DNA of 64,000 nucleotides from Clostridiales bacterium DTU072 (GTDB lineage: Bacteria > Bacillota > Clostridia > Christensenellales > DTU072), in the NCBI GenBank assembly GCA_001512685.1, contig LFSG01000046.1, positions 17,707 through 81,706 of the forward strand, written 5' to 3'. The notes under the pieces were generated by a model. It had not been told where the DNA came from, searched no databases, and was given only the letters and a program-made list of their open reading frames with translations. A program made the translations under genes and the position numbers. Shown here in pieces: positions 13,053 to 39,800 of the stretch; within the stretch, counting starts at the first letter, position 1, and each line of letters starts with the position of its first letter.

Positions 13053-13095
13053 ATGCGCCTCATAAGCCGAACGCTTTTGGAGGGGCATTTTTTTA
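13053..13095 (+). terminator. Probable intrinsic terminator after the tRNA
   Basis: The stem ATGCGCCTC / GAGGGGCAT has one mismatch, with an inner AAGC/GCTT stem, and is followed by TTTTTTT. Confidence 0.45.
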
Positions 13096-13145
13096 TGGGA
13101 AAAGGGGAGGGAAAATGTAAAGTATGGCGGGGTTTATTTTAGTGT

Positions 13146-13694: not shown

Positions 13695-13854
13695 TTTTCC
13701 TCCGCAATCAAAAAGAGTTTTTATTATAACATAAACAAGCAGCTTTTGGCAAAAATTTTTCGCGCGCTTGCCCAATTAATCGCCTTACCTTTTCTTTTAT
13801 TTATTCATATATTGTTATAAAGAAAAATAATTCTTTCGCGAAGGAGAAAATGTT

Positions 13855-19572: not shown

Positions 19573-19756
19573 ATATACCTCTACTTTGCGATTATATCAT
19601 ATATATTGAATCTGTAAAACAATCCGCCAAAGATTTTTAAGGTACAATTTAAGAGGCTTTGGTCCAATATGCAACATAAAACGACCTTGCTAATATAGTA
19701 TAATAGGTTCCTGCGTATATCCAAAACAATAATTCTTCTTTATGGGGAGGCAAAAA

Positions 19757-20218
19757 ATGATAACCAGAGCTAAAGCGACAATCAGCGGAGGACCCCATTA
19801 TCCTAATATAAACGGGGAGATATACTTTACGCAAATCAATTATTATGTGGAAATAGTGGTCAGAATTTACAGGCTCCCTTCTTTTTCGAGGGAAGACGGA
19901 AAAACGGTGGGCCCTTTCGGGTTTCACCTGCATACCGGCCAAAGCTGTGAAAAAGGCACAAAGGAAAATCCCTTTCCCCAAGCGGGAGAGCATTATAATC
20001 CGCACAATCAGCCGCATGGCAACCACGCCGGCGATTTTCCTATCCTAATGCCCTTAAAGGACGGAACCGTGGTAATGAGATTTCTTACCGACAAATTTAA
20101 GCTCGACGATGTGGTGGGAAGGGCGGTGGTTATACATGAATCTCCCGACGACTACCGCACTCAGCCTGCCGGCGGCAGCGGCATCAAGATAGCCTGCGGA
20201 ATAATTAAGCCGTTATAA
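19757..20218 (+). CDS. sodC: Cu/Zn superoxide dismutase family protein without a signal peptide
   Basis: All metal-ligand blocks are visible: GFHLH, GEHYNP, PHGNHAGD, VVIHE. I prefer the ATG at 19757 (GGGGAGG 6 nt upstream). Confidence 0.85.
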   Translation: MITRAKATISGGPHYPNINGEIYFTQINYYVEIVVRIYRLPSFSREDGKTVGPFGFHLHTGQSCEKGTKENPFPQAGEHYNPHNQPHGNHAGDFPILMPLKDGTVVMRFLTDKFKLDDVVGRAVVIHESPDDYRTQPAGGSGIKIACGIIKPL

Positions 20219-20506: not shown

Positions 20507-20535
20507 TTGACATCGCAAAATTAATACCTTATAAT
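20507..20535 (+). promoter_or_regulatory. Near-consensus promoter of the first giant-locus gene
   Basis: TTGACA (20507-20512), a 17-nt spacer, then TATAAT (20530-20535), ~30 nt upstream of the start codon. Confidence 0.6.
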
Positions 20536-20565: not shown

Positions 20566-22725
20566 ATGAAGAAAAACATTTTCACTAAGGTCATGCTTGT
20601 CCTGCTGATTGTTTTGCTTTCATTGTGCGTTGTGGCTTGTAAAAAACCAAAAGGCAACGACGGCGGTAATGGCGGAAACGGCGGTAACGGCGGTAACAAC
20701 GAAGAAGACAATGTCGCGACCGTATCTGACATTTTTACCATGATCGAAGCGCTTAAGCCTTTGGGAAAAGGCATTGACCTTGTCGATGACACATTAAATG
20801 CCGATATTTCTTTGGCGATCGAAATGGGAGATACCCAATATGTATTGAACGTCAAGGGAAATATTTACGAACAAACGCCCGAAAACAATCAAGCGCTTGT
20901 TGAGCTTAAAAACGAGGATGGCGTAGTGCTGGGCGTTTATTTGAAGGACGGAGAAGTTTATCTTAATCAAGAATTCACCAGAAGCACTCCTTACGCGAAG
21001 TTCTCCCGGCTTGACGGCACGGAATTCAACAAAGAGCTGAGCAAGCTTCCCGGAATCATCAAAGATCTTGATTTGAATCTTGAAGACGCGTTAGGCGAAT
21101 TAAGGAACTCGGATATTGCCGATTTGCTTGAACTGCTGGATATGATTCTTGAAGACAATCCTTTCCTTACTTACAAAGAAGAAGGCAATACCCATACCCT
21201 TAAAATAGTGTCCGAAGAATTGGGTAAAGCCATAAGCTCGCTATTGAGCACCATAGGAGACAAGTTAGGAGATTTTGAGGGCCTTATCGATACGGCCAGC
21301 AATTTCCTTTTTGGCGTAGGTATCGACGGACTTGAGACCGCTACCGATTTCCCCGAAATATCCATTCAGGTAACCTCAGAAGATGACGGAACCTGCGGAC
21401 TGAAACTCCATTATATCGGCGACTTGGATAAAGAAAAAGCCGGCAATGAGACCTTGAGGGTAGAAATCAGCGCATTTGTGGACAACGATACCAATGTCAG
21501 CATTAATTTCCCCAATTTTGCTTCATACAAAGAGGCCGCGTTAAAAGCTTCGGTAACCATTGATTTGGGATTAAAGGATATTTATCTTAAAGCCGATATT
21601 TTTGCCGATCCCGACTTTACGAGCGACTCCATAAGGCCCACCGCTTATTTGAAGGCCTATGACCAAAGCCATTACGAGATAGCCGATTTGGATGCCGTGT
21701 ATGACGGAGAAAAATTGTACTTTGACATAGCCGGCCTTTATGATTTGGTAGGCTTGGAAGCGCCTGAAAAAGAAAACACAATGTATTATGTGGAGTATAA
21801 ATTCTTTGACAACTCTGATGAACCCGGCGATCCCACGCCCGTTGATCCTCAACCCGACGAGGACGAAGAAGAATCAGAACCAAGCTATTTGCCTTTTGAG
21901 CTTAGCGGCGATTTCTTGGGACAATTGGTAGGCAAAATTACCGACATAATCGATTTGCTTAAGGATACGGTCAGCAATAAGGCGCTCGTCATCGATGTGG
22001 ATACCGCGCTTAAGCTTGTAGACGGTTTCTTGGTAAAATATGACGGCCCGGTATACTCCAAAAATACCACATTAGAAGAATATGAAGAGCTCCTTGCCGC
22101 GAAGTCTTCCGATTATAAAGAAGACGAAGAGTATACTGCAGCGCAAATAACCGCTATGGCCAAAAAAGTGCTGAAGGAAAACTTAGAGGAAGATAAGACC
22201 CTGGCGGACTTCCTTGATGAGTTTGAAAATGAAGCCGAGGGCTACAAGGTTATTCAAGCGCTTCTTGACGATTTGTACAGAAGCACCGAAAAATATGACA
22301 GGAACGCCATGATAGCGGACATCGAGGAAGCGCTCGCCAAATTCGCGACCGATGAATTTATCAGCAAAAAGCCTGATGCCACGGTGGCGGATAAAGCTCA
22401 ATCCGTTATATACGAAATCACCGGTTTGAACATTTCGGTTGAAGAGCTTGTGGAAGCCAAAGGCGACGACAATGTGGATATCTACCTTGGCCTTCTTGAG
22501 GAGGGTCTGGGAATAGAGCTTAACCTGTCCGCCGGCGACAATGAAATTTTGAATTTCGTAGTCGAAATCGATTTGGTGGAAGCTTCAGAGATTGGCGAGG
22601 AAGATACAGAGAAATATGAGAGCGCTGTGGAAGTAGGCTCCAAGAATGAGAATGACGAATATATCATTCTTAATCAATTGCAAGAATTATTGGACGCTTA
22701 CAGAGACAGAGCCCTTGCCAACTAA
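20566..22725 (+). CDS. Acidic lipoprotein (719 aa), a stand-alone copy of the giant-protein head module
   Basis: GGAGGG RBS, then MKKNIFTKVMLVLLIVLLSLCVVAC (lipobox), then a Gly/Asn linker. There is by-eye collinear similarity to the N-termini of the next two genes. Confidence 0.85.
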   Translation: MKKNIFTKVMLVLLIVLLSLCVVACKKPKGNDGGNGGNGGNGGNNEEDNVATVSDIFTMIEALKPLGKGIDLVDDTLNADISLAIEMGDTQYVLNVKGNIYEQTPENNQALVELKNEDGVVLGVYLKDGEVYLNQEFTRSTPYAKFSRLDGTEFNKELSKLPGIIKDLDLNLEDALGELRNSDIADLLELLDMILEDNPFLTYKEEGNTHTLKIVSEELGKAISSLLSTIGDKLGDFEGLIDTASNFLFGVGIDGLETATDFPEISIQVTSEDDGTCGLKLHYIGDLDKEKAGNETLRVEISAFVDNDTNVSINFPNFASYKEAALKASVTIDLGLKDIYLKADIFADPDFTSDSIRPTAYLKAYDQSHYEIADLDAVYDGEKLYFDIAGLYDLVGLEAPEKENTMYYVEYKFFDNSDEPGDPTPVDPQPDEDEEESEPSYLPFELSGDFLGQLVGKITDIIDLLKDTVSNKALVIDVDTALKLVDGFLVKYDGPVYSKNTTLEEYEELLAAKSSDYKEDEEYTAAQITAMAKKVLKENLEEDKTLADFLDEFENEAEGYKVIQALLDDLYRSTEKYDRNAMIADIEEALAKFATDEFISKKPDATVADKAQSVIYEITGLNISVEELVEAKGDDNVDIYLGLLEEGLGIELNLSAGDNEILNFVVEIDLVEASEIGEEDTEKYESAVEVGSKNENDEYIILNQLQELLDAYRDRALAN
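20662..20697 (+). repeat. Four tandem 9-bp units (GGCGGWAAY) encoding a GNG-repeat linker
   Basis: GGCGGTAAT GGCGGAAAC GGCGGTAAC GGCGGTAAC. The last two units are identical. Confidence 0.8.
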
Positions 22726-22769
22726 GCTTTAACCTGATTCGATTAACAAGCGGTCAAAACCGCGGTAAA

Positions 22770-22801
22770 CCAAAAGCCATCCCGTACGGGTTGGCTTTTG
22801 G
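22770..22801 (+). terminator. Intrinsic terminator after the 719-aa lipoprotein gene
   Basis: CCAAAAGCCA…TGGCTTTTGG 10-bp stem with an inner CCC/GGG, followed by a T-rich tail. Confidence 0.65.
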
Positions 22802-22882
22802 TGATTGTTTTATAATTTAACTTTTTCACTTATTTTACACAAAATATATACTCTATTTACTTTATTTTATATTCAATTAATA

Positions 22883-22911
22883 TTGACACTTTGATATATT
22901 TATATTAAAAT
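22883..22911 (+). promoter_or_regulatory. Predicted promoter of the two giant genes
   Basis: TTGACA (22883-22888), a 17-nt spacer, then TAAAAT (22906-22911). A 7-bp hairpin AAGGGCG/CGCCCTT (22933-22951) lies in the predicted leader. Confidence 0.55.
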
Positions 22912-22988
22912 AGATTTGCATATTTTTAATATAAGGGCGTATAGCGCCCTTTGACCGTCTTTACCTAACAGGCGATTGGAGGTCTTAG

Positions 22989-25900
22989 GTGTTACATAAA
23001 ATAAATTTGCGGAGAGTCATACTGGTTGTGCTGCTTGTGTTATTGTCGTTGAGCATTGTGGCATGCAAAGAGCTTCCTCCCGACGACAGTCCCACATACA
23101 GCATAAACGACGACGAGAAAAACCAAGCCAATAAAGACCAGAACACCAAAGAAACGGCCATAGAGAAAGTAACCACCTCCATTACCAACCTAAAAGAGCG
23201 TTTGAACAGCGAAAAAGTAGGAGAAGGCGGCTACTATTTAGGTTTTGACTTTTTTATCAATACCGCCAAAAACGATAATTTTATTTTGAAGCTGCAGGCC
23301 CATCTGTTTACTTACCCGTATATGAACGAATTCGGCGTCATCAGGGAAGATGATTTGGCAAAGCACAACGAGTTAATCAAAAAAAGCACCATATTGCTGG
23401 AATGGTATGACGGCCGAACAAACACAATGCTTATTGGCTTTTATTTTGACGGCGTAAAATCCAATCCCCACGACCCTGGCAACATACTTTACCTCAATTT
23501 GCAGGGCGAAAAGAGATGGTTCCCCGATTTTGGCGACACCGTGCTTTTCCAACAAATGATAAGGCTGATAACTTCTTTCAGCATAGACGATTTGCTGAAT
23601 AAGGCCGGCATAGGCGAAGACGGCGGCGTAAGCGCCATAGAAACCTTGCTGGACATGGCCATTACCAATAACTATAAAGTCGTCGTTAACCACGACGAAG
23701 AAAGCAACAAGGACATCACTTCCATTCGATTCGACAATGTGTCCTTGGATATGATTAGCGAGGATTTGACAGAAATTCTGCAAAGCATTTTTTCCCCGTT
23801 CAGCAATAAGATAGACCCTCTTACCAAAAAGTATTTGGGTTTCAGATTTTCCACGCTGGGGCGCACTTCGATAAGAAAGCTCAACACCAATCTGCAATTC
23901 TTTACCGAGCCCGACACCGACGGCTTGGAGGACATTCTTACGGGCGCTTATGTGGAGATGGACGGCACGGCCTATGTAGACAGCCAATCGGTGCCTTTTA
24001 CTTCCGTTGTCAACATATATTACGGCGTGGCCCCTCCCGAACCCATTCAGTTGGATAGGGAGTATTATAAATATTTCGATTACGGAAAATATGAGTTTAC
24101 GGGCAATTTGTATTTGCCCACCATGAACCTTCAAATGGACGCTTTGATACGAATGAAAATCAATGAGTTCGATAATACCACCAACCATGTTTTTTCCGAA
24201 TTCAGAGATATAGCCAACGGGGATTTGCTCATAGGCGCTTATTACAAAAATGAGCTGGCCTATTTTGACATCGAAGGGCTGCAGCATTTGTACGGCGGCA
24301 TAAAAATCGACGATATCGGTTTTCCCAAGGTATTTATTGAGGACTGGGATTTGGCCAAAATGCTGGGAAGCTTTAAGGATATGGTGGACAAAGCCATTAT
24401 CAGCATAGTGGACAACATTTTAGACCCTCTGGACAGACCTAAAAACAATATGCTTCAGGTAATAATGGCCAAGATGGAGTCTACCGAAAGAAAAGACGGC
24501 GATCCTTTGACGGTCCGGAATACCGTCATGATAAGAATAGACCATGAACTGTTGAAAGACGTTTTGCGTGAAGGCGGCTACGGCACATACACCACACGCG
24601 ACATCATTAATATCATTAACGCGCAATTGCCCATTACGCTGGACGAATTGTGCACCATTTTGGGAATAACCAGCGCCGAAATTCTGTTGGAGAAGACATG
24701 GATTAAGCTTACTTTGGATGTGGACACCAATATGCTTACCATTCAATTGTATTCCGACATAGGCATCAATGTGGGCGAACAGCCCAGCAAGCTGCTCATG
24801 CAATTGGACCTTATTCCCGTAAAAATCGGCGAAGACATGATAATAGCCGAAATCAGCTTTGACAATTTTAAGGAATTGCTGCCCATATATACTTATTCCG
24901 CCGAAATGGGCGGACAGTTTATTTTCTCCAATGCCGAAGTGGTTGATTTGTCGGAATTGCTGAGCTCTTTCATGGACGATATTTCGGGCTTGAACACTCC
25001 GTATATCCTGCCCGCCGAGGCCAAGCTTGATTTTACCTTGGTATACGACCAATACATCAAAGAGCAATATCTGCAAACGGTGCCGGGAGGGCCGCGGGAC
25101 GGCAGATGGACGAAAGCGTCGCGCAACGCCTTTATTTTGAACGTGTTCATTAAAGGCACCACGCCCGAGGACAATATCACTCTGTTCAATATATACGCAA
25201 ACGACGTTTCTTTCAAAACCAACGCTCCCGAAGAAGATTTGGGGTATATTTGGGTGGATTTGGTGTGCTTGAGAAGCAATCCCGACGTGCCCACCATTCC
25301 CAAATTCAAGATAAGGGAAGACTATTGGCTGCAATCGGTAAACAGGTATTTGAACAGCACTAAAGCCAGCGACAACGTGCAGCCCATCCTCAATCCCGAT
25401 ATCAGCCTTTCGATTACCACCATTATTTCCGCGCTTATGGAAGACTCGTATGTCGTTTTCCAACCCGAACAAATAGAAATAACCACATCCAATGAAACGG
25501 TGCAGAGTATTTTTGGGGTGGAAAGCCTTATAGGCACCATAAACGCCCAAATAGGATTGGTGCAAAGGGTGTTCGGCGTGGATCAAATAGAGGACGAATT
25601 CGCCGAATATTCGGTAGGATACTTTGAGGATATATACGCCGACGGGCCTTACACCACCAAGCTTCATGAAACCATAGACGTAACCTTTACTTTTAACCAG
25701 AACGGAAGAATTTGGTCAGAAACTTTGCCTTTGAGATTCAAATACGAGCCTAAGTCCGTGGAGGTAAAAGAAGACCCCACCATAAGGGAATACCATCCCA
25801 TTATCTACGGTCCCATACTCGTAAGCGAAACCTCTCCCCTTATCCATAGGTTCATGGGCGTTCAAAGAGGGTATACCATTTATATGACGGGCGGACAAAA

Positions 25901-28900
25901 CAGCCGTTTGAAATTGAGAGAGCTTGCCAACGACGATTGGTACGATCCCGAAGAAAAAAGGATTATAACAAAAGAAGAAATAGCCAATTATTCCGAAAGC
26001 GAAAAAGCTTATTTTGAAAGCATAAAGCATAAATTGCTGCCCCATTATAGATTGGAGCCCAGACTGCCCAAGCCTACCGAAATGGAGCTGTACGCCGGCG
26101 GCACGGGCAGCTCGGTCATAGTTACCTACGAAGCCAATATTTTGATAGATTGGGAATCGGTAACGCTTGCGGGAGGAGAATACTTTACCGAAGTAATCAT
26201 CGCCGAAGGCATGATGGGCGAAACCGTATTCCCGTTGCATATCGTGGTTACCAACAGAGTGGTGGACACCTCCAACATGAATCCCCAATATGTCAATGTT
26301 ACCGCAAATCCCGACAGCGACGAGCTTACAGAAGCTCCCGTAGTGGACAGGATAAGCATAGATCCGTATGATTATTTGTGGCAAAAGGCCATTTATTTTG
26401 AACAATACTTCAACCACAGGGTGTTCGATACCCCCCAATCCAAAGAGATAGCCAGACAGCAAACCAATATCGCTTTTATTCAATATTATTTCCGTAATTT
26501 CGATATCGCCATCCGCTTTGTGGATTTTGACGTGGATGTGGAAGATTACAGAGACACCCCCGCGCATAGGGTCAATGACCTTGTATGGTATTTCGACAGA
26601 TACGAGCCTACAAAATATTACAAAGAAACCGATATCGTGTTGTCGGGCGGCTCCACATATCTTCACGCCGATTTCAAGGGTCAAATCGTGGCTTTGCAGG
26701 TTGTTGTGGAAAGTCGCACCATCAGAGGGGTGTATTTTGACGGGGAAGAGGAAAACAATGTCTATACCGTTGATATGCTGGACAGCGACAGCTATGCCAT
26801 TCCGCTTTTCCCGCTGATAATATTTGAGGAAAAGGATGAAGGCGACAGGCATATTACGAGAAGGCTGATAGACGCCGATAACGGTATAGAAGTTCCCATG
26901 TTATGGTCTCATCCCATTGTGAACAATCCCCGCATAGAAGGCACGGACACGCCTTTCTTGGGTTCGGCAAGCAATCTGACAAGCTCTTATGTGGATTTAT
27001 ATAGAGCTTTGGGCGTGGGAGAATGGATATTCAAGGATTATTCGCCCATCGTGGTAATCAGGGTGGAATGCCCCTCCAAAGAAATAGCCGATTTGGAGCT
27101 TCCCCAACCTGTATACGGGTATAAAAACATAGACGATTGGCACAGCGGAATTACATCGGAGATAAAACCCTCGTATATTAACATCGGGGACGATCCTACT
27201 GGCTTTTATTATGTCGATCCCTTCAATCCGCAAACCGCCAAAATCCCCGGACACATAACCGTTACTTTCAAAGGCAGGCTGGGGCATCATGATTATTATA
27301 CAAAGGATTACAATGTGGTTTGGGATACAAGCTCGGGGCTTGTAAGATATGACAGCCAAGGCGATTATTATATGCTCACCGTCAATTCCGAGGAAGAAAC
27401 CTACCTTCAGCTTACGGCGATGGTAGGCAATGAGCAAGTGGGTTATATCGAAATTGTTTTATGCGTCAAGATATTGACTTCCCATTACACCGACATCAAT
27501 TTCTTTGACGATCAAGGCAATAAAATCGATATCGGGGGAACTCCTGAAGCGGGTTATGTATATTATGTGAATACTTACCAAGGGTTTAAGATACCCCATT
27601 CCTTCGCCGCGCTGTTTGGAGAGTCCGACGTAAGATATTATAACGCCGACTGGAAGGGCAAGAATATTTATGGCGAATATGTCATTGATTTGAAGGACAT
27701 ACAATTCAAGCCGGGCAGCGTGATAGAGCTGAAAACCACTTTGCCGGGAGCCGAAGGCGCCGTGCTTGAAGTAAGGCTGACCATAGACGTCAACAACGTC
27801 AATATAGAGAAAATCATCTTCACCAACATTCCCATGTGGAAAAATCTTCAAGGGCAGTTGGTGAAATTGCCGATTACTTTGAGACTGCAAGACCTTAATG
27901 ATTTAACTTTGGACGGAATAAGGCTGAATACCGAAGGAAAGGTGGAGAATCTGTACTTCGGCAGAGGCTTCTATACATATGAAGAATATGAGCAAGCCGG
28001 AGTGGATGTGCCGTATATAGAGGGCATTAAGGATGAATGGGGCAATTACATACAATTACCCGTTGAGCCCGTTTCCCTTTATCCGTATGAACTGCTGAGT
28101 ATCCTGTTCCTAAATACATGCTTAATCTTTGACGATGGCAGCAAAATGATAAAAGATTACGACATTCATAACCTCAGGGGCATTATGGACACTCAAGACA
28201 TAGTGCAGAAAGTGGGCGATACCGCCAACTTTAATTACGGCGGTGGCAAATATGTGGTAAGATTGGGCCAAGGACAAGGCGCCCATGACCTTACGATAAG
28301 AATAAGATTTACTTACGGTTTGTTCGTGGAAGCGGGCGGCCAGTCCGAAAGCTATGACATAGAACTTTATAATCCTGACGGCACGGCGATTTGGGGACCC
28401 GAAGGCTTTGTGCTTGCCGATAACGTAAGCGCAAGCATAGAGGTTTCGGTGCAAGAGACCGGCAATATGGTAACTTATTTATACGGACCTTTGCACGGCC
28501 AAGACGCCCCCAGACTGGATATATGGTATGTGGAAAACAGCAATGTGCCTTCCATTCCCATAGGCTCGTATATTTCTTACATCCCTCGCGAAATCCTTTA
28601 CGACAGCTCCCAAAACATCGTTTTGGAATTGTCTTTCCTTACCGAAAAGGGATTCAGAATTAAGCGCAGCTTCAATATCGTCAAGGTAAGCTTCTTGAAT
28701 ATGTACAGAAGCATTGATACTTATGACGACATATTTACCATAGAAAACGGCAGAATCGTAATAAAAGACTTGTATAAATTCTATCCGCTTGCTTTATACC
28801 TCAACAACGCCGACAATTTGCCTAAAATCATAAACAGGCATACCAGCTATTACGATATAACCATTTCCGATGTGCAATGGACGATAAGCCAAGAATGGAG

Positions 28901-31900
28901 AGATTTTCTGGCTATATACGACTATAAAGGGGACGCCGCCGATATTTTGCTTGCCACCGCCGAAATTTTGGGCTGGTATGAAGTGGTAACCGTTAACGGC
29001 GTGCCCAGAAGAGTATATCATAACACCGAAAAGATATACCTTTACATACATATCGAGTCCGCCGAAGTAAAATATTTGCCTTTGGAGGAATCTCACAACC
29101 TTAAATCGGGATACAAGGACATTCTTGTTACTTCCCAATCCGAATATGAGCAAAAACTGAGAGTGCAGCAGTTGTTCGGAGTTAACGCCGACAGCGAAGA
29201 TTTTGCTTATCGCGAATTCGTCATATATATGGACGCTTACAGAAATTCCAATTACAAAGGAAGTTTTGTTCCTCCCGCCAACCTTGTGGTAGGCTACGCC
29301 GACCCCGAAACCGTTCATACTTTCTCGGCTTTGAAATACTATTACCAAGGTTATGAAATCACAACCATACCTTATGGCATTACGGGTATTATTTGTCAAA
29401 GCGACCTGAACGGCGATTATCTTGTCATCAATAATAGAAAAGTGTACTTCATATCGGGCGACGACAGGTATAACATGACGCTGAAGGTTGAATTGGGGGC
29501 GGGGCAGACCATTGCGGTGAGAATTCATTTCTTTAACAAAACCGTTAAGGCGGTCAGACCCATAATCGAATACGGCGACGAGGAAATAAGGCAGCAGATA
29601 AGCCAAGCGCTTGCGTCGGAAATGGAAAAGATACAGCTTGCCGCTCAAGAAAACATAAACATTAAGAAGCTTGAGCACGAAATAACCGCCGTTTTAATCA
29701 AAAACCGCGAAATAAAAGAAACCGTAAATAAAAATTATATCTATGCCGAGCTTAAAAAGATAAGCGCGGACAATTTAAATAACGGTTCAGCTCTGGAAAG
29801 AGTAAGGCAGCTTTTGGATATAGCCGTAACTATTTTTGAAAACCCCGGCGTTGACGAAACAGATAAAAGAAATCATAATTACGCCGCGCATATAGTAATC
29901 GAAATGCGCGAAGCTTTATTCGATGACGCCGTCAACGCGGTTTACGGCGCTCTTGAGGCTTATTTGAGAAACCAGGCGGGAGCCACATTCGGCGATATCG
30001 AGCAAGCCGTTACCTCTTATCTTGACGATTTATTCAACAACGCGGGAGTCAAGATTATAAACAACAAGATAATTGACTTTGCCGAGCCTCAAATAAGATA
30101 TCAAATAGAACAAATGGAATTTGAGCAGCGCATTTATGTGGTCAGACTCAAAAACCAAATTCAATACGAGCTTAATGTGCAGAATATCTTAAATCAAATG
30201 CAAAAAATAACATTGAGCCAACTGACTCCGATCAGACTGGCTATCGAGGACATAATAAACGCCGAATTTATCAGAATGATAGAGGCCGTCAAAGAAAAGA
30301 GCGACGACAGCCAAGCTTTCGAAACTGCCGTTGAGAACAAACTTAAAGACAGAATGTTGGTACGCAGCGTGGAGCTTACCGATTTGTGCATTGAGCTGGC
30401 GCGAATACATATCGGAGAAATCACCGACGATCCCGAGAGTTTGATTAAGGCCTTCTTTGAGGAATTTTTCCACTTTATCGAAGACGATATGGACATGATA
30501 ATCATGGCCATAAAAGAACAAATAGAAAAAACAAGCGCCATATTGGTGGCCGAGATGAGAGCCAGCTATGACGCAGGGCTTGCCATAAATACCGGCGGCA
30601 GGCTTACCAGAGCCGTAAATCTCAGCATAGCCGAAACCATCAATAACATTATGCTGGAAGGAAGAATAGTGGACGCCATAAGACGGGCGCAAAATCTTAA
30701 CGAAGCTTATACATCGAACGGCCAGTACGCCATCGATCCTTACGGCGATTATATCTTTGTGCCTACGCGCGCCGAAATAATTTTTGACGAAGAAAACGGC
30801 GGAGAAAGCTATATCGTGAACATTAACTGGACCAAGCCTTCTCATTGGTCTACGCCCAGAAATCCCAACGCCGGAGTAACTTATGCCGGCAATGAGGCCA
30901 AAGAAATAGAAGCTCAAAACGACACATGGGTTTGGTATCAAAACGAGCTGGAGAGAAGAAAACTGGAAGTCTTTGAGACGGGCGGCCATTTGACGATTGA
31001 GGAAGAGCTTTTGGACAACATAATGCAAAGCATACTCAACGCCATATATACCGAGCGCCTGCAGAATGGAGCGCTTACCAAAGATCAGGGCTGGGCGGAG
31101 CTTTGGAATGACGCCGGCATAAGCCACGCCCACTTAAACTCCATTTTGAGCAGCATAGAAAAGCGTTATCCCTCGGACGACCAGACTCAAAAGCATATTT
31201 ATTGCTTTGATATGTGGGTATATATTGAGGCATGGAATCAATTGAGGGGCTATACCGTGCCCGACGATCCCGACACCGCCGCCAACGAATACGAAATATG
31301 GCAGGCGTTGCTGGTTAAGCTGGCGCGCAAGCTGCTGGCTATTCGCAGAGACGAATTTACGGCTAAATTATATACCGAAGGCGTGGGCGAACAAGACCTC
31401 AGCTTAATAGTGCTGGTGCACAAAAGAAGGCTGGACGCCGGCAGTTATATTCTGTATAAAGACGGATATGAATGCTCGCCCACCGATCCGATGTATCATA
31501 TTGAAGACCCCTTCGCGGGCAGAGTGTCCGATTTCCCCAATCTCATATCCGTTGACGACGGCGTAATAGTGGACGGCAAGGTTATCAGCTTCTCCAATTT
31601 GACGGTGGATTGGGATTATACCGACCAAGCCATTACTTACGCCGGAACGCTGGTCAAAAACGAAACCACCGGGCTTATGGGCGTAATAGTGAAAGGCTAT
31701 ATCAAAAACAGCGACGTAGGTCAGGAAGTCAGGTTAAGGCTGGTTGTGAATTCTTGGGAATACAATGACTCCGGCGTCAGCGGATTGCGTCAATATACCG
31801 GTCCTGCTGACGGGGATATTTATGACGAAAACAATTATACGATTATGGACCCCATAAGCTTTGTGTTCTCCAAGCTTGTGGATTATTCGGCTCAGGAGCA

Positions 31901-33881
31901 ATACCAAGTAATGATAAAGGAAACCTGTTATAAGCCAAGCTATGACGACAACGGGAATTTGGTGGAAGAAACCGAAGTGGTATACAGAAACGTGCTGTTC
32001 TACCCCGAAGACAGCCTTAAAGTCCGCGACAGCATTGACGACGCCGAGATGGCCGTAATCAAACAACGCAGAAATTATATTCTTTATTGGGACGCCGAAG
32101 CAAAAAGCTTGGCCTACAATTCGGGCGGAACGCCCGTTCTGGGCAGCTTCTCGCTGGGCAACGCAAGAAAAAATAAATTGACCAGATCGAACAGAGCCTA
32201 TTATCAATACGAGGAATCTTACATAAGCAAAGTCAATCCCATTGACTGTACTTTGGAAGATCTGCGCGATTGGCTATTGGAAAGCGGCAGAGCCGCCGAC
32301 CATACGGAAGCGACGGCGATGGCCGAGCAAAAAATGAAGGAACTGTATAACATTACGGGCGTATCTTCCTTGGTTATCAATCCTTTGAATCCCGTATTGC
32401 CCGCCACCGTCGACGCCAAAGGAATACTTAATCAGGTTAACGACACTCAATTGAACGGAATAAGGGTGCTGTGGAATAAGTCTTATGGCAAAGCCGTACA
32501 GGATTTGACGCAGTTTGTCAAGTATATGTATCCCACCCTCACAAACAATGAAGCCGACAGAAGCGCCAAAGAAATTTTGATGGATATAGGCAGAAGCGCC
32601 GCTCAAGAACAAGAGCTTATCGAAAATCTTATTGCTTGGCTCATGGATACTTGGTCCGCCCAGAATTTGACGCCGCTTACGGATATGGACAACGAAAACT
32701 GGGAGATTTATTATCATCACGCCAGCACCACTTCCGCGATAAGGACAAAAATGTCCAATATCATGGACAGAGTCGTTAACCAAAACGGCAACAGGACCAG
32801 CGTATATGACAAAAACGAAGGCTGGTACAAAATGTATACCTTCCTTGATTTGCTCAACTCCATAGAAATACTTACCGAGGAAGAAAAAGCCATGCTTTGG
32901 GACTTCAGGGTAAGCGGCGCGGCCGATCCCTTGCCTCTGCAAGATATGTATCAGAGAATCGCCCAAGCCAATCAAGGGCTGGATACGCAAAAATTGAAGG
33001 CGCTGGCGTTTGACGAATATGTAAAATGGGAAAATTGGTATACGCTTAAACTGAGATATACCGGATATACAAGATTGATTAACGAAACCAACAGCCTGTA
33101 TGATTATTTTGTCGTCCAATATCCTGGTCTTAACGATTATGAATACGGCGCCAAATGCTGGGATCATTATGTGTCAACATTCGGCAATGAAGACCTGGGA
33201 TACTTGAATACGCTCAGAGATTTGGCTCAAAGCAGGCATCCCGAATACGCGGGCCAAGACGATATGCTTAACGCCATAGCTTGGGACGAATGGATAAAAG
33301 CCACATCCTTCCGCGAATGGATGACAAGGCAGGCCAAAAACACGCTTATGATAGACGAAGAATACGACATTCATTCTTCAACGGGCTACCTTGACGGCGG
33401 CATAGACGGCACCAAGACCGTTACCTTGCTGTTGCAGCTTACGCAAGGCGGATATATCTATGCCCAAACCTTCAAAATCAGACTGATATTCCTTGATTTG
33501 TCGTCTCTTGCGTGTTACGCCGACACCGCGGGCAACAACAGAGTGTCCGCAATGCCCAAAGACAATCCGCTTACGGAAATGACCATAGCCGTTAAAGCCG
33601 ATTATTTCACCGACGACTATGTGGGCAGACTGAATCCTTACAACACCACAAACGCCTTTGTCTTTGATTTGCTGGATTATTTTGCCACGCGAGAATTTAT
33701 GGGCCAAACAGTCAATAAATACATAGACGGAGCGCAAAAGAAGGTTAAGCTCATCAGAATTACAAATATTGTATGGAATATTCCCGCCAACGCCCAAAGC
33801 GGCGATACCGTTTATTCAGATTCGTTTACGGTTGGCGAGATAACATATAAATCGGATTTATTGAAGATGGTATTAAGCTAA
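22989..33881 (+). CDS. Giant lipoprotein, 3630 aa, unknown function
   Basis: An uninterrupted 10.9-kb ORF. GTG start with GGAGG 6 nt upstream. Signal peptide plus lipobox (LLSLSIVAC). The head module is paralogous to those of the neighbouring genes. Beta-rich modules alternate with long helical regions. No enzymatic motif was recognised. Confidence 0.9.
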   Translation: MLHKINLRRVILVVLLVLLSLSIVACKELPPDDSPTYSINDDEKNQANKDQNTKETAIEKVTTSITNLKERLNSEKVGEGGYYLGFDFFINTAKNDNFILKLQAHLFTYPYMNEFGVIREDDLAKHNELIKKSTILLEWYDGRTNTMLIGFYFDGVKSNPHDPGNILYLNLQGEKRWFPDFGDTVLFQQMIRLITSFSIDDLLNKAGIGEDGGVSAIETLLDMAITNNYKVVVNHDEESNKDITSIRFDNVSLDMISEDLTEILQSIFSPFSNKIDPLTKKYLGFRFSTLGRTSIRKLNTNLQFFTEPDTDGLEDILTGAYVEMDGTAYVDSQSVPFTSVVNIYYGVAPPEPIQLDREYYKYFDYGKYEFTGNLYLPTMNLQMDALIRMKINEFDNTTNHVFSEFRDIANGDLLIGAYYKNELAYFDIEGLQHLYGGIKIDDIGFPKVFIEDWDLAKMLGSFKDMVDKAIISIVDNILDPLDRPKNNMLQVIMAKMESTERKDGDPLTVRNTVMIRIDHELLKDVLREGGYGTYTTRDIINIINAQLPITLDELCTILGITSAEILLEKTWIKLTLDVDTNMLTIQLYSDIGINVGEQPSKLLMQLDLIPVKIGEDMIIAEISFDNFKELLPIYTYSAEMGGQFIFSNAEVVDLSELLSSFMDDISGLNTPYILPAEAKLDFTLVYDQYIKEQYLQTVPGGPRDGRWTKASRNAFILNVFIKGTTPEDNITLFNIYANDVSFKTNAPEEDLGYIWVDLVCLRSNPDVPTIPKFKIREDYWLQSVNRYLNSTKASDNVQPILNPDISLSITTIISALMEDSYVVFQPEQIEITTSNETVQSIFGVESLIGTINAQIGLVQRVFGVDQIEDEFAEYSVGYFEDIYADGPYTTKLHETIDVTFTFNQNGRIWSETLPLRFKYEPKSVEVKEDPTIREYHPIIYGPILVSETSPLIHRFMGVQRGYTIYMTGGQNSRLKLRELANDDWYDPEEKRIITKEEIANYSESEKAYFESIKHKLLPHYRLEPRLPKPTEMELYAGGTGSSVIVTYEANILIDWESVTLAGGEYFTEVIIAEGMMGETVFPLHIVVTNRVVDTSNMNPQYVNVTANPDSDELTEAPVVDRISIDPYDYLWQKAIYFEQYFNHRVFDTPQSKEIARQQTNIAFIQYYFRNFDIAIRFVDFDVDVEDYRDTPAHRVNDLVWYFDRYEPTKYYKETDIVLSGGSTYLHADFKGQIVALQVVVESRTIRGVYFDGEEENNVYTVDMLDSDSYAIPLFPLIIFEEKDEGDRHITRRLIDADNGIEVPMLWSHPIVNNPRIEGTDTPFLGSASNLTSSYVDLYRALGVGEWIFKDYSPIVVIRVECPSKEIADLELPQPVYGYKNIDDWHSGITSEIKPSYINIGDDPTGFYYVDPFNPQTAKIPGHITVTFKGRLGHHDYYTKDYNVVWDTSSGLVRYDSQGDYYMLTVNSEEETYLQLTAMVGNEQVGYIEIVLCVKILTSHYTDINFFDDQGNKIDIGGTPEAGYVYYVNTYQGFKIPHSFAALFGESDVRYYNADWKGKNIYGEYVIDLKDIQFKPGSVIELKTTLPGAEGAVLEVRLTIDVNNVNIEKIIFTNIPMWKNLQGQLVKLPITLRLQDLNDLTLDGIRLNTEGKVENLYFGRGFYTYEEYEQAGVDVPYIEGIKDEWGNYIQLPVEPVSLYPYELLSILFLNTCLIFDDGSKMIKDYDIHNLRGIMDTQDIVQKVGDTANFNYGGGKYVVRLGQGQGAHDLTIRIRFTYGLFVEAGGQSESYDIELYNPDGTAIWGPEGFVLADNVSASIEVSVQETGNMVTYLYGPLHGQDAPRLDIWYVENSNVPSIPIGSYISYIPREILYDSSQNIVLELSFLTEKGFRIKRSFNIVKVSFLNMYRSIDTYDDIFTIENGRIVIKDLYKFYPLALYLNNADNLPKIINRHTSYYDITISDVQWTISQEWRDFLAIYDYKGDAADILLATAEILGWYEVVTVNGVPRRVYHNTEKIYLYIHIESAEVKYLPLEESHNLKSGYKDILVTSQSEYEQKLRVQQLFGVNADSEDFAYREFVIYMDAYRNSNYKGSFVPPANLVVGYADPETVHTFSALKYYYQGYEITTIPYGITGIICQSDLNGDYLVINNRKVYFISGDDRYNMTLKVELGAGQTIAVRIHFFNKTVKAVRPIIEYGDEEIRQQISQALASEMEKIQLAAQENINIKKLEHEITAVLIKNREIKETVNKNYIYAELKKISADNLNNGSALERVRQLLDIAVTIFENPGVDETDKRNHNYAAHIVIEMREALFDDAVNAVYGALEAYLRNQAGATFGDIEQAVTSYLDDLFNNAGVKIINNKIIDFAEPQIRYQIEQMEFEQRIYVVRLKNQIQYELNVQNILNQMQKITLSQLTPIRLAIEDIINAEFIRMIEAVKEKSDDSQAFETAVENKLKDRMLVRSVELTDLCIELARIHIGEITDDPESLIKAFFEEFFHFIEDDMDMIIMAIKEQIEKTSAILVAEMRASYDAGLAINTGGRLTRAVNLSIAETINNIMLEGRIVDAIRRAQNLNEAYTSNGQYAIDPYGDYIFVPTRAEIIFDEENGGESYIVNINWTKPSHWSTPRNPNAGVTYAGNEAKEIEAQNDTWVWYQNELERRKLEVFETGGHLTIEEELLDNIMQSILNAIYTERLQNGALTKDQGWAELWNDAGISHAHLNSILSSIEKRYPSDDQTQKHIYCFDMWVYIEAWNQLRGYTVPDDPDTAANEYEIWQALLVKLARKLLAIRRDEFTAKLYTEGVGEQDLSLIVLVHKRRLDAGSYILYKDGYECSPTDPMYHIEDPFAGRVSDFPNLISVDDGVIVDGKVISFSNLTVDWDYTDQAITYAGTLVKNETTGLMGVIVKGYIKNSDVGQEVRLRLVVNSWEYNDSGVSGLRQYTGPADGDIYDENNYTIMDPISFVFSKLVDYSAQEQYQVMIKETCYKPSYDDNGNLVEETEVVYRNVLFYPEDSLKVRDSIDDAEMAVIKQRRNYILYWDAEAKSLAYNSGGTPVLGSFSLGNARKNKLTRSNRAYYQYEESYISKVNPIDCTLEDLRDWLLESGRAADHTEATAMAEQKMKELYNITGVSSLVINPLNPVLPATVDAKGILNQVNDTQLNGIRVLWNKSYGKAVQDLTQFVKYMYPTLTNNEADRSAKEILMDIGRSAAQEQELIENLIAWLMDTWSAQNLTPLTDMDNENWEIYYHHASTTSAIRTKMSNIMDRVVNQNGNRTSVYDKNEGWYKMYTFLDLLNSIEILTEEEKAMLWDFRVSGAADPLPLQDMYQRIAQANQGLDTQKLKALAFDEYVKWENWYTLKLRYTGYTRLINETNSLYDYFVVQYPGLNDYEYGAKCWDHYVSTFGNEDLGYLNTLRDLAQSRHPEYAGQDDMLNAIAWDEWIKATSFREWMTRQAKNTLMIDEEYDIHSSTGYLDGGIDGTKTVTLLLQLTQGGYIYAQTFKIRLIFLDLSSLACYADTAGNNRVSAMPKDNPLTEMTIAVKADYFTDDYVGRLNPYNTTNAFVFDLLDYFATREFMGQTVNKYIDGAQKKVKLIRITNIVWNIPANAQSGDTVYSDSFTVGEITYKSDLLKMVLS

Positions 33882-33898
33882 AATATGGAGGCTGAGCT

Positions 33899-36800
33899 GT
33901 GAAGAGACCCATTCGGATAATCTTACTGGTGATATTGACGGCGATTCTGTCGTTGACTATGATTTCGTGCGCCAAAAACCCCGGCGTAAACGCTCCGCCC
34001 ATTGACAATATGCCGGGAAACCCCTCGCCCATATTCAAGCTTAACAAAAACCAAATGCTGACCAAAATAAGCAACGGTATCGATTTAGGCGCGAAAATAC
34101 TGGAGGAAAGCGAACGCTCCTATGTAAGCACCGTCTATACCGTGCTTGTCAAGCATATCAATTATACCATTACCTATAAAGCCAATTATGCGCCCAAGCG
34201 TCAGGACAGCGAAATTTACGCCAAAATTTTTGACAATAACGAAAACATGAACAGAGTTTTCGTTTATTACAATAAAGGCGAATTGTTTTATCAATTGGAA
34301 GGGCAAAGACACAGCATACCCGATTTCGGCATTACCAGCTCTTTTGATTTATTCTTTGAGCTGATTACCATGCTCGATATGTCTTATACTTTGATGAGCG
34401 AAAACATAGCCGCCATATTCGACCCAAACAATATGGGCGGGAACATAGGTCCGCTTATCGATCAAAGCAGAATGCAGCATATACAGCTTTCCGAGGGCGA
34501 AGAAGTAAGAGAATCCATTGAAATGAGGGATGTAAACCTTAACTATGAGGATGTCAAGAAAACCATCAATACTTTGATTCAAGACGTATTCGGAAAGTTT
34601 GAAAGGAAACTGGACTTGTTGACGCTCAAATATTTGGGCTTTAGATTAAGCGACCTTTCCACCATTGAGCTTAATGATTTGAACGGCGACTTTATTAATG
34701 TCAGGCTGAGGAATAACGCGGCCGAGACAATTATTTTTGAAGCCAGCGGAAACTTGACGGACAGGATAAATACTTTTTACGGCGAACTTGAATTGGAGGC
34801 CAGGGAAGGGAAGGGCGAAATAGTTTTGCAGGATGATGAAAACCCTTATCTTGTCAATTATCCCGAAATGCTTATGGGAAGGTTTAATTACGGCGGAACT
34901 TTGTTCGTGCCTTTCTTGGATATGACTTATGACGCTACCTTCAGAACAATTTTGTCCTCCTCCGACAACACCATAAATCAAGTGCTCTTTACTTTGAACA
35001 GCAGGCATGAAGAAATAGGCGGCCTTTTCTATAAAGACCAAATGCTTTATGTGGATATTACCGGAATCAATCGACAGCTTAACGGCGCCATTGAATTGGA
35101 AAAGCTCAATTTGCCCAAGGTCAAATTTGACGGGCTGGATTTGGCTCTTGAAATTTCTTTATTGATAAATGATTTGGTCAGAATCGTAAAAGGCTTTACG
35201 GGGGATGACGAGTACGGAGAGAATGAAGAATTAACCCGTCTTTTGCTTGAAAATATCGTATCCGACGAGGATACAAGCACTATTACCGTTACCGTTACCA
35301 AAGAATTGATACAGCAGCTTTACGGCGAAGATGTGGACCTTCTTCAGCTTATCGCCGATAAATTGGAAGTGCCCAGAGAGCTTATAACGCAAATATTGGG
35401 CGACCAAGCGCTGGAAAACGCCAAGCTGGTAATTTTGTATAATGTGGAAAGCGGCGCCATAGGCCTTGATTTATATGACGGCGACTATCTTGTTTTTGAA
35501 TTGAGGATGGAAAAAATAGATCCTCTTCCCGGCGACACCATTACCTATCCTCAATCCTTTAATCCCGATACCTTCACTTGGCTGGAAATACCCGACAATA
35601 CCATATTGTCGCTGCAGGGCACGCTGTCCATGCAGGAAGTATCCAAAATTGACTTTAATTGCCTGTTCGGCGCCCTTTTGGGCGACATTTCAGGCGTGAA
35701 TACGCCATACACCCTTTACAGTAACGAACAATTGCATTTTTTCCTCGACATAATGCAGATATATAAATATATCGAGGGCGTAGACGGGGAGCTTTATCGC
35801 GAAATCGAAAAGGTGATGAAATTTGAAATCTACAAAAATGATATTTTACAAATAGGGGTTTATTCCTCAAAAGACCCCAATTATTTGCTTGTGGATTTCA
35901 ATGTGCCTGTAGGGCCTTTGGGCTCTGACAGGAACGGCGTTCCTTATATTCAAAAAACGCTTAAATACAAAATTGAAAGAATAAAAGTCAAAGAAGCGTT
36001 TGCCGAACTGTTGGGCGATGACAACATTTTCGGCATGGAAAATGTCATGGATATGTTCACCAGGCTTTTGCGCTCCATAAGGGAAAGCGTAAGCATGCGT
36101 TTGAGGTTCGTGGATTCCTCTTTCGCGTTTAACCTTGTGTCGGATACCGTAAAGGAATTAATCGGACTTGACAACCTTAACGCCCTTATTAAAACGCGCA
36201 TAAGGTTTGCCATGACTCCCCAGCAATATCTTAATATCAACATTGTGGAAGACGATTTTGTCACGCCCAGCATCAGTTTCCTCGATAATTTGGATTTTGA
36301 AAGCATTTATCAAATGCAATGGCATGAATTCGCCTATACGCATTTCGGAAACGATGTAATGCGCTTCAAGCTGACTTACATAGAGGATTCGGTAAGGATA
36401 ATATCGGGGAAATATCTTTATCAGCCGCAGGCCAAGCTGCTCGATAAGATTGTATCGTATTATGTTACCTTGTACGACAGCGTCAACGGCATAAAAGTGG
36501 TGAAGAACACTCTTGACCCCGAAACGCCGCACAACAAAGACGCCGTTCTCAATACCGAAAGACCATTGCAAATCGATCCGTCGCTAACGGAAGACCTTCC
36601 CGAAAAGATTCCCGTATTGTATGACGACGGCACTTTCGGGGAAGTAAATTATACGATTGAAGGCTTTGATGTCAGCAATATTACCGTGTCCGGCATGCCC
36701 AGGGCGGAATATTGGCTGGTTATCGGCAAAGGAAGCGTGGCCGAAATCAAGTTCTACATAGCTGTGGAAGTGCTGGGCAGAGTCATTGTGCCCATAAAAG

Positions 36801-39800
36801 AAATAGTCAACGGCGTGCCTTCCAATATGAGAAGCCCGGATTTAGGCGCTCCCGTTGTGGACGAAGTTACCATTGACCCGTATACTTACGCCATCAGAAA
36901 AGCCGAAAATGCTTTCTGGAATCCTCTTAAGACCTCTCTTACCTTAAAATTTGAGCCCGTCGAAGGCGAAGACATCGGCGATACCGTGAATATCAGCAAT
37001 ATCGAATGGGATTTTGACTTCAGCAATATACAATTTAACGGCGGCGTGTTCTTTACGCACGCGTACTACAATAAGCTGCTGATAGCTCTGAAGGTCAATG
37101 TAAAGTCAAAAATAGTGGCGTATTTAAGGTTTGTGGATATCGTCAACATCCATCTGCCCATGGACTCAAGGCCTTATACCGAGGCTCCGGCGCAGTATAC
37201 CGTGGATGTGCTGGATACCTCCACATATGCTTTCCCAACGGGCTCTACCGCCGAAAGACAGCTCAGGCTTTATTTTGAGGACGGCACTTACAGGATTATC
37301 GGAACAAGAGACCATACCTCTGACGACACAGAATACTTTAAGAATTATTTGCCTATTGTTTTGGAATGGAAGCATGCCACCGTAGATTACGCTTCCATAA
37401 GGCTGGTGGGCACAAAAGCGCCTTTAGGTCCCGTGGACAAGAATATCAATAGCGCCATTATCGGCAACGAAAGCTTTACCATAGGCGTTCAGCCCATTAC
37501 TTTGACTATTCTTATGCCTTCAAGGGCGGAAGCCACCATAGGAAACGCGGGCACCATTTATGCCATAACGGGATTCAACAGAAGGTTGGACGACAGCTAT
37601 AATTTTGAAGACCCCATAAGGGAGCATGTTACTTATACCAACGCAAGCTTTGCCCCCAATTTGCCTTTGGGAAGCTTCTTTGAATACAATCCTTACAATC
37701 AGCTGCCCCTACCCGATATTATCTATCTTGATGTGGAGCAGGGCGGCGAAAACAGGATACAACGCAAGGGCTATAAAGTGGAATGGCTGGAGTCTGACGT
37801 GTTAATGCCCAGAGATGTTTATGACGATTCCGGCAACAAAATAAAAACCGAATATGTGTTAAGAAATGTATATATCGACGAAGAATATTTTCTTGTAAGG
37901 GGTTTGGTGGGCAACGGCAACCATAAAATAGTGGTAAAAATGATTGTCAAGAACCTTGAAGCCGTTTATCAAAGCATTACTTTTGAGGGAATGAGCCCCA
38001 ATGTTACCCAAAAAACCATAGACCCTTATTTGCCGTATACCCTTCCCGCGCATTATACCCTTTTGCTTAAGAACGGAAACGAAATAAGAATAGACGCCGT
38101 GGAATGGTTTATTGTGCTGCAGCCAAATCAGAAATGGATGATGCAGCTTAACGGCAAAAGCTATCATTGGATATATGATTATATCGAATATTTGGACGCC
38201 ATAGCTCAAGGCTTGCCGCATGAAGACCTTGAAGACATAATTCCTCCCGGCTTCAGCGAGCCTACTCAAAGCGAGCTTGAGTATTTTCTGCTGCTGATAG
38301 AAAAAGGCGAAATACCGCTGGATAACAGATATGTCTTTTCCCATACCGGGGGAACATATGTATTGAAAAGCTATGTGGAGGCCTCGGAATCCATAATAGC
38401 TCAAGAAGTGTTTTTGACGCTTAACGTCATTCCCCGCACCGTATTGATTAAAGAGGACGAAAACGGCTATACCCAAATAGATATATTTAACAGCGGCTCT
38501 TCCCAGCCTTCTGAAAGGTTTACTTTGGACACCTACCATGTCAGCAGCGACACCATGCTTAAGAGGCTGGAGTATTTGCTGAGCATGAACGGCGAATATG
38601 AGCGTACCCTTAAGTTATTCAACAACATTTATATGGACAACAGAAAGGAATATCCGGAATTGGATTATATGCTTTTGTACGCTCAATGTTATGACGATTA
38701 TTACGCCGCGGTTAACCAAAGCGAAAAGAATGTTCTTACTTCGTATTATTATCAAACCATAAATATGATGCCCGACGCCATGCCCGAGGAGATTAAATAT
38801 TACGCTTTGCAGAATTATCTGGAAGATAAAAACGCCGAGCTGGCCAAAGCGACCGTGGGCATTTATTTCGGAGATTTTGAAGAAATCTCTATGAACAAAT
38901 ATGAATTGCATGTGCGGTGGATTAATATAGGGGAGATTATTGCCGCCTTAACTTCAAGCGAAGGGGCCATGAGCGGTATTGTGCTGGAAGGTTATATAGG
39001 ATATGGGCAAGTAAACCAGCAATTAATCCGCATTCCCTTCAATATTTCCAGAAGAAAAATAGTGAACTTCAATTTCAACAGAATGACGGGCTACGACCCG
39101 TCCATAATGAGCGTGGATTACCGCTTTGTTTATATCGGGAACGAAACTGAAGCGACGGCTTTGATTGACGACATTACCGACGCGGTATTGCTGGATAACA
39201 CCATTCCTCAGCACGAAAAATCATATACCATATTCACCAGACTTTACAATTATATTTCGGTTACCGATTATGACCGCGCCATAATGGACAGCGTGGAAGA
39301 AAGCATTTATCATGAAGACACCGAAATGCGGTACGCGTTGATTTTGCAGGAAATAAGAAGATTAAGGCTGGAGAACATAAGGACCGTGCTTATTGAAATG
39401 CATAAGCCCATGGGCTTGACGCAGCTTGACGACGACGGCGACAGGATATTCATGGCTCCCGCCGATTATTTCCTTAATTTATTTTCGCAGGTAAGCCTTA
39501 TGTTCGCCGACGGCACGGAAGGCTATTATGCCCCCCGTTTTGTGATGGGGAACGGCGCCACTCTTGAGGAGCAAAAAACCGATTTCAATCATAAACTGCT
39601 GGCGGTCAATCCCGAAAATGTGGAGCTTGATCCCGTTACAGGCAGAAGATACGCTTATGTCAATGTGTTGCTTACGCATTTGAGCCAAGGCAGCTGCGAA
39701 TATCCGGTTACCATAAAATTCAAAGCCATAGTGGACCAAAAGGGCGTGGTGGACGGCTATCCCACCGAGAGCGAATTGGATCCCTATGACGAATTCGGCA

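Follow-up and report, generated by a model that had tools for sequence, protein, structure and literature searches.

A short and two giant predicted lipoproteins share a membrane-proximal base domain and a conserved gene order in Christensenellales-type Clostridia

Gene layout and lipoprotein signals

We describe here three adjacent genes, termed A, B and C, from the genome of Clostridiales bacterium DTU072 (Christensenellales; assembly GCA_001512685.1). They lie in a stretch of 64,000 nucleotides (nt) on contig LFSG01000046.1 (positions 17,707 to 81,706, forward strand), which was analysed as a whole and is called the window below. The genes encode a short and two giant predicted lipoproteins which, as judged from family profiles, are related at their membrane-proximal ends, and the gene order recurs across the clade. 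A sequence-only reading of the window had already noticed similarity between the three N-termini and taken the short protein for a free copy of the membrane-proximal part of the giants; the relationship is upheld here, with an extent and a meaning for A that differ from those first proposed. The plus strand of the window carries four large genes, A to D, arranged head to tail:

20566..22725, + strand: gene A, lipoprotein of 719 amino acids (aa)
20566..20640, + strand: signal peptide and lipobox of A, ending …LCVVAC, read from the sequence
22989..33881, + strand: gene B, lipoprotein of 3630 aa; GTG start preceded by GGAGG; lipobox IVAC, Cys26
33899..52927, + strand: gene C, lipoprotein of 6342 aa; GTG start preceded by GGAGG; lipobox MISC, Cys24
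53091..60026, + strand: gene D, 2311 aa

The mechanical open reading frame (ORF) of gene A starts at 20554, and residues of A are numbered here along the 723-residue ORF from that position. The ATG at 20566 is favoured as the true start, with a GGAGG ribosome-binding site 5 nt before it, so that the predicted lipidated cysteine is residue 29 of the ORF, or Cys25 counted from 20566. The lipobox pattern [LVI][ASTVI][GAS]C was sought at all three N-termini and is found in A (MKKNIF…LCVVAC) and B (…LSLSIVAC), and in C (…LSLTMISC) in a looser form only, which admits its Met at -3. By N-terminal signal and lipobox, A, B and C are lipoproteins, predicted to be processed by signal peptidase II. No second hydrophobic segment and no LPXTG motif is present in any of them. 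Neither Pfam nor NCBIfam gave a match to A, B or C, the Pfam threshold being E<=10 for B and for the first half of C, and PDB sequence searches with profiles of the A family and of the giant heads found no match. The cassette of ~32 kb thus encodes ~10,700 residues without a sequence match in Pfam, NCBIfam or PDB.

A head of 1,400-1,500 residues common to the two giants

BLASTP aligns B and C in one long N-terminal segment, residues 7-1505 of B with residues 5-1362 of C, at 22% identity (142 bits, E=1.5e-36 to 3e-36); 30 shuffled C heads reached at most 26.6 bits. Identity per 100-residue window stays between 14 and 32% throughout the segment, and profiles built separately from B-type and C-type heads match each other at E=4.8e-69.

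23007..27503, + strand: full head of B common with C (residues 7-1505; BLASTP and profiles)
33911..37984, + strand: full head of C common with B (residues 5-1362; BLASTP and profiles)

All nine peptides on which the sequence-only reading had based its alignment by eye are present, at B166/C128, B278/C241, B415/C373/A380 and B661/C593. Its pairing of the B and C blocks is recovered by BLASTP to within one residue of register (B166-C129, B278-C241, B415-C374 and B661-C593). The formal alignment of B and C, at E~3e-36, finds the significant similarity beyond the signal peptides without which that reading was to be abandoned. A head module of 400-700 aa in all three proteins had been claimed; the homology is real, but the shared part is ~1,400-1,500 aa between B and C and only ~340 aa in A. 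On the evidence of these alignments, B and C are paralogues over ~1,400-1,500 N-terminal residues, and beyond the head their bodies are unrelated or related only locally.

The giant family separates cleanly into a B type (~45 clusters) and a C type (~50 clusters). Together with the strong match between the two head profiles, this indicates that the duplication that gave rise to B and C is old and that both copies were kept. An origin by gene duplication and massive C-terminal extension, as had been suggested for all three proteins, is reasonable for the giants. Identity among B orthologues is ~40% in the head against ~26% in the body, which fits a constant foot carrying variable distal parts.

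A second common module of ~100 residues appears to lie far from the head, at B ~2789-2906 (window ~31350-31710) and C ~2911-3030 (~42630-42990). Its hhalign value of E=1.4e-9 is optimistic, since the alignments may mix both types; cross-type BLASTP also matches, at E 5e-6 to 3e-5.

A base domain common to A, B and C

By BLASTP, A matches the B and C heads in the signal peptide only (E=1.7 and 1.3), and the block at A380 quoted in the earlier reading is not significant by itself. In line with these results, it may be that only B and C are related and that the resemblance of A to them is artefactual, caused by composition or by a common signal peptide and linker. A first comparison of small profiles with hhalign reached a probability of 96% with the signal peptide included, an inflated value, and fell to 30% (E 5e-4) without it; moreover, an exhaustive search with a hidden Markov model (HMM) of the giant head retrieved no A-type proteins at E<=1e-3. 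Larger profiles gave a different picture. Once signal peptides and lipoboxes had been removed on both sides, the profile of the A family matched that of 76 giant heads at E=3.1e-8 and a probability of 95%. The match covers 320 collinear columns, pairs A59-398 with B57-434 and recovers the by-eye pairing of A380 with B415. In the controls, reversing an alignment gave E 0.34, shuffling its columns E 0.3-0.8 and shuffling blocks E>=0.02. The match was repeated with B-type heads only (E=8.9e-7) and with C-type heads only (E=4.8e-6). A plain giant-head HMM matches A-family proteins at E=2.4e-9, via a helix-hairpin-hairpin stretch and not via the low-complexity linker.

Predicted structure points the same way. 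AlphaFold secondary structures of A and of B45-960 were predicted separately and compared in the register of the alignment from sequence only. Agreement over the 320 positions is 72.5%, against 33+-6% (maximum 52%) when the register is slid, and 189 of the 190 positions structured in both are in the same state. Finally, it is precisely this stretch that forms the conserved core of A-type proteins throughout the clade. We therefore regard an artefact as very improbable. As far as profiles and predicted structure can tell, the membrane-proximal ends of A, B and C contain a homologous base domain of ~340 aa. Of the alignment check proposed in the earlier reading, the comparison of B with C succeeds by BLASTP, whereas that of A with either giant fails by BLASTP and succeeds only with family profiles.

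20728..21747, + strand: base domain in A (ORF residues 59-398; hhalign, secondary structure, HMM)
23157..24290, + strand: base domain in B (residues 57-434; hhalign, secondary structure)
34058..35083, + strand: base domain in C (residues ~54-395; hhalign against C-type heads)
21748..22722, + strand: A-specific C-terminal half (acidic low-complexity linker at ~420-447, then a mostly helical region)

The order of parts is the same in all three proteins: the lipid anchor, a linker of ~25-30 residues and the base domain. In the giants, the most conserved motifs lie in ~1,000 further head residues, such as GD.SG.NTPY at B661. Residues 400-723 of A found no match in giant residues ~406-1626 (E 0.46), and an A-family HMM run against all giants gave no consistent match outside a beta-hairpin motif. 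The helical tail of A is ~300 aa long; the tail differs in length among A-type proteins, which measure 680-1,230 aa in all. The description of A as a free copy of the membrane-proximal module of the giants has to be given up: it has only the first ~340 of more than 1,400 aa in common with them, followed by a linker and helical tail of its own. As for its origin, the data are compatible both with A as a truncated giant and with the giants as extensions of an A-like ancestor.

Fold of the head and features of the bodies

The base domain is a mixed alpha/beta structure in the predictions. It has a pair of helices at its N-terminus, together with long beta-hairpins, a helical insert, a larger sheet and a strand that bears the motif YY..E..Y.DI.GL. 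For B45-960, the AlphaFold model has a mean predicted local distance difference test score (pLDDT) of 83.8 and a predicted template modelling score (pTM) of 0.74. Foldseek comparison of this head with PDB returned BFA1 (5yvf, E 8.8e-4), AttH (2ich), Staphylococcus aureus SAOUHSC_02783 (4egd), LolA (9azz), a DUF1329 protein (4z48) and the pericyclases Fsa2/Phm7; the best matches are all open or double beta-barrel proteins. Comparison with viral structures gave nothing useful.

These matches raise the alternative that the head is a lipid- or glycolipid-binding open beta-barrel module like those of LolA, LprG and AttH. It would keep the protein attached to glycolipids of the membrane or to lipoteichoic acid, or else transport lipids of the envelope, and the giants would be envelope-maintenance proteins rather than adhesins. 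Only BFA1, AttH, 4egd, LolA and DUF1329 reached a Foldseek probability of 0.75-0.85, so the sole matches at that level are open or double beta-barrels, and the head adjoins the lipid anchor, as such a module might. Yet the template modelling (TM) scores are 0.19-0.33, normalised to small targets, with root-mean-square deviations of 11-24 Å, and may reflect just long antiparallel hairpins, although the whole multi-domain head model was used and single-domain matches could be understated. A LolA/LprG-like fold, an unclosed antiparallel beta-barrel that has a helical lid and a hydrophobic cavity, was taken as a TM-score above 0.5 or membership of the Pfam LolA clan and was not found (target-normalised TM-scores of 0.29 for LolA 9azz, 0.29 for 4egd and 0.19 for AttH). 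Nor is there a sequence match to such families in Pfam, NCBIfam or PDB, and the idea leaves thousands of extra residues unexplained. The proteins of this group are single-function carriers of 150-350 aa, several of them membrane-adjacent lipoproteins or lipid carriers; none of them serves as the foot of a giant of 3,600-6,300 aa. We consider both the lipid-binding fold and the roles that would follow from it quite unlikely. As modelled, the B head is without a close structural relative.

A second hhalign register pairs A89-336 with B376-638 (E=2.5e-6, with 68% secondary-structure agreement), and the giant heads match themselves internally over ~65 residues (E 3.5e-5 to 9.5e-5), weak support for an internal duplication. 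Taken together, the two results suggest that the head arose when a single unit was duplicated in tandem, a two-unit architecture that is likely but not settled.

In the bodies, BLASTP found no significant internal repeats in B or C, and the immunoglobulin (Ig)-like repeat families Big_2/3/4, MBG and Flg_new gave no Pfam match in either protein, even at E<=10. Isolated precomputed Ig-like matches occur in orthologues, PF07532 (which we take to be Big_4) in P0003 and MBG_2 in the C-type protein of locus L004. Repeats of the Big_4-like form LPxxVxVxFxDG were considered and rejected, a regular-expression scan giving few scattered matches only. The last ~120 residues of C (window 52500-52927) resemble right-handed beta-helix repeats (…NSRFNKNTVGVKS…GSRFEF…NSSFYSNGVGIKS…); they are N/G-rich with a period of ~22 residues, and Pfam Beta_helix (PF13229) does not match them at E<=0.01. 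The C-type orthologues P0115 (L056, 10001-21349) and P0145 (L057, 10001-21637) have weak precomputed PF13229 matches. Scanning metagenomes with the C-terminus of C yielded no relatives.

Distribution and gene order

The family is rare. An exhaustive HMM search with a head profile of 945 positions against 1.84 billion representative proteins returned 113 clusters; long proteins (~2,500-6,800 aa) match from about residue 1, and the others are shorter sequences and fragments. The homologues collected initially comprised 54 A-type proteins of 610-688 aa, from Christensenellales metagenome-assembled genomes, and 9 giant relatives. A scan of one genome per species with an alignment of B-type heads only found them in 47 genomes, nearly all of uncultured Christensenella, Christensenellaceae, Candidatus Stercoripulliclostridium and unnamed Clostridia, from animal guts and digesters.

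The weakest head-profile matches (E ~1e-4) were P0171 (281 aa) and P0172 (469 aa). Both are lipoproteins with a pattern, …LLVEL…LSLYYVNEQIVIDLGGL…, that resembles the base domain, and they could be further short or intermediate lineages.

Six contexts from different lineages show a C-type gene with its upstream neighbour (the window, L004/L005, L006/L007, L055, L056 and L057), and in every one that neighbour is a B-type gene. Of the loci from the species scan, 26 extend 3 kb or more upstream of the B-type gene, and 21 of these have a gene for a lipoprotein of 680-1,230 aa that ends just before it. Single-linkage BLASTP (E<1e-6) joins 19 of these 21 lipoproteins to the A family, and the BLASTP matches of the 723-residue ORF of A to the more distant ones all fall within ~residues 55-420, spanning the base domain. 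The order A then B recurs with different flanking genes in L001-L003, and the full order, with an upstream protein of 774 or 916 aa followed by the B-type and C-type genes, in L056 and L057, where unrelated genes lie downstream. The presence of A-type genes just upstream of B-type genes across the clade fits a functional link. A-B-C is a conserved cassette, seen so far only in Christensenellales-type Clostridia.

Some 7 kb past the cassette in L056 (28437-31349) and L057 (28329-31637), another large gene starts (1945 and 2055 aa) and runs off the locus. It has no Pfam match, and the two distant genomes also share the intervening gene order.

Transcription signals

Consensus matches are the basis of all transcription signals reported here.

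20507..20535, + strand: sigma-70-type promoter upstream of A (TTGACA, 17 nt spacer, TATAAT; 12/12 positions)
22770..22801, + strand: terminator-like stem-loop after the A stop codon (AAAAGCCA…TGGCTTTT), seen by eye
22883..22911, + strand: promoter-like site upstream of B (TTGACA, 17 nt spacer, TAAAAT; 11/12 positions)

The gap between A and B is 263 nt (22726-22988) and holds the stem-loop and the near-consensus promoter; a scan for consensus terminators made no plus-strand call at the stem-loop. The gap between B and C is 17 nt and includes a ribosome-binding site. Probably, B and C share one transcript and A forms a transcription unit by itself.

These observations bring in the main rival to a joint structure, that A, B and C are three independent paralogous lipoproteins whose common domain is a module for anchoring or spacing, which might for instance span the cell wall or bind to it, and whose adjacency stems from tandem duplication. 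The strong promoter of A and the hairpin before B would suit such independence, as would the B-type genes that lack an A-type gene upstream, the unrelated regions outside the common part and the genes past the cassette, which differ between genomes. Simple tandem paralogues, however, usually vary in order and copy number. Here the order A, B, C has been kept although the proteins have diverged to 20-40% identity and the flanks differ, and there are only two giant types, in similar numbers. We hold independent paralogues to be a serious but somewhat unlikely alternative to a cassette whose products act together.

Neighbouring genes

The surroundings of the cassette are ordinary chromosomal genes, for FeoB, a DsbD-like protein, a glycoside hydrolase, Cu/Zn superoxide dismutase, seryl-tRNA synthetase and a P-type ATPase, and GC content is even across the window at ~44%. 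The superoxide dismutase gene (19742-20218, +) immediately precedes the A-type gene in the window, and the same arrangement occurs in GCA_900198705.1. Its coordinates are 9215-9676 in L001 and 2334-2795 in L002, and in L003 it is absent at that position.

Downstream, gene D (53091-60026, +) encodes a secreted protein with an M6 (immune inhibitor A-like) peptidase, RCC1 beta-propeller repeats and Big_2/Big_3 domains, and with a dockerin-like segment at its C-terminus (E 0.003, below the gathering score). The product of gene E (60033-60770, +) is a lipoprotein of 245 aa in which a cohesin-like domain is matched (E 2e-4, also below the gathering score). From these domain matches, D and E look like a dockerin-cohesin pair that would tether a giant protease to the membrane. 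We considered D and E as part of the cassette and rejected this, the genes downstream of the C-type gene in L055-L057 being unrelated.

Long antisense ORFs (157-415 aa) on the minus strand within B and C (23373-33167 and 37859-52741) are probably a by-product of codon and AT-skew bias (AT skew +0.06 to +0.18), and not genes. Elsewhere in the window are a cobalamin riboswitch (507-687, -; 84 bits), a tRNA gene (12953-13026, +) in a stretch of lower GC content (12001-14000, GC 0.385), and an ORF at 9727-11085 (-) for another likely surface protein, of 452 aa with BspA-type leucine-rich repeats (LRR_5, E 2e-46).

Discussion

Our preferred reading, which we offer tentatively, is that A-B-C is a cassette specific to this clade and encodes surface proteins with lipid anchors that have a membrane-proximal base domain in common; the base domains would pack together as feet while the giant bodies project. 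The base domain would sit outside the cytoplasmic membrane, beside the lipid anchor, as a foot. That the genes for three paralogous feet have stayed next to one another suggests that the feet pack laterally into a mixed A-B-C base, in which the short A would act as an organiser or cap. From this base the giant bodies may project as fibres that serve in adhesion or in contact with a substrate or host. Body length in the giant family varies between lineages (proteins of 2,500-6,800 aa). The analysis shows the homology, the lipoprotein signals, the gene order with its conservation, and the rarity and missing annotation of the family; surface exposure, fibre shape, hetero-assembly and adhesion are inferred, and co-assembly of A, B and C is plausible.

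Several points weigh against this reading. The relationship of A to the giants depends on profile methods, and with an alignment extended to 28 A sequences the match weakened to E 2.8e-5. For A itself, the AlphaFold model, built from 11 sequences, reached a pLDDT of 40; it was unusable and was kept out of the fold search. No A-type gene precedes the B-type gene in L004/L005, nor in ~5 of the 26 loci, and with an own promoter for A and a terminator-like hairpin before B, a fixed stoichiometry via co-transcription is not implied. Contact between the three proteins would be hypothetical, and an adhesive role is proposed by analogy, the bodies of B and C matching no known adhesin or Ig-like Pfam family.

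A bolder form of the packed-feet reading, which we think unlikely, is that A, B and C are subunits of a new heteromeric surface organelle of Christensenellales, with three new-fold feet interlocked and two fibres of 3,000-6,000 residues projecting from them. If true, it would be a new way of mounting giant surface structures in single-membrane bacteria, unlike anchoring by sortase, S-layer-homology domains or cohesin and dockerin.

The giant adhesins of Gram-positive bacteria, such as Ebh of Staphylococcus aureus and the Bap-type proteins, have a C-terminal LPXTG or transmembrane anchor and are built of FIVAR, GA or Ig-like repeats. B and C resemble them in being very large and secreted, in combining a conserved anchoring end with a lineage-variable body, and in being chromosomally encoded in gut or host-associated Bacillota. 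Unlike them, B and C are predicted to be anchored by an N-terminal lipobox, lack LPXTG, significant BLASTP repeats and Pfam/NCBIfam domains, and form a fixed pair with a short paralogue. Cohesin-dockerin anchoring likewise displays large proteins on lipoprotein anchors, as the downstream D/E pair appears to do, whereas A, B and C have neither cohesin nor dockerin. A metagenome survey of giant genes covers uncultured bacteria and includes giants of gut Clostridia with RCC1, dockerin and leucine-rich repeats (bioRxiv 10.1101/2023.11.21.568195). In that survey the words lipoprotein and Christensenell- are absent, and the giants in its Clostridia passages have known repeat domains; by comparison, A, B and C are smaller, predicted to be lipid-anchored and without known domains. 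No description of the A/B/C family was found in the literature searched.

What is new at this locus is the head/base domain family, N-terminal lipid anchoring at such size, the fixed A-B-C order and the ~10,700 residues without known domains; giant bacterial surface proteins and families of lipoprotein paralogues are, as kinds, already known. The base domain common to A, B and C, which folds confidently in the B model, offers a handle, whether as an HMM marking the clade, as a construct for structure determination or as a target for pull-downs and antibodies. It also permits a direct test of whether paralogous feet with lipid anchors can organise giant proteins on the membrane. Members of the Christensenellales are gut bacteria that are heritable, associated with host health and hard to culture, and to our knowledge almost nothing is known of their cell surface. 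In summary, a gene order that has been conserved in this clade, for proteins with no match in Pfam, NCBIfam or PDB, points to a major uncharacterised envelope or adhesion structure.

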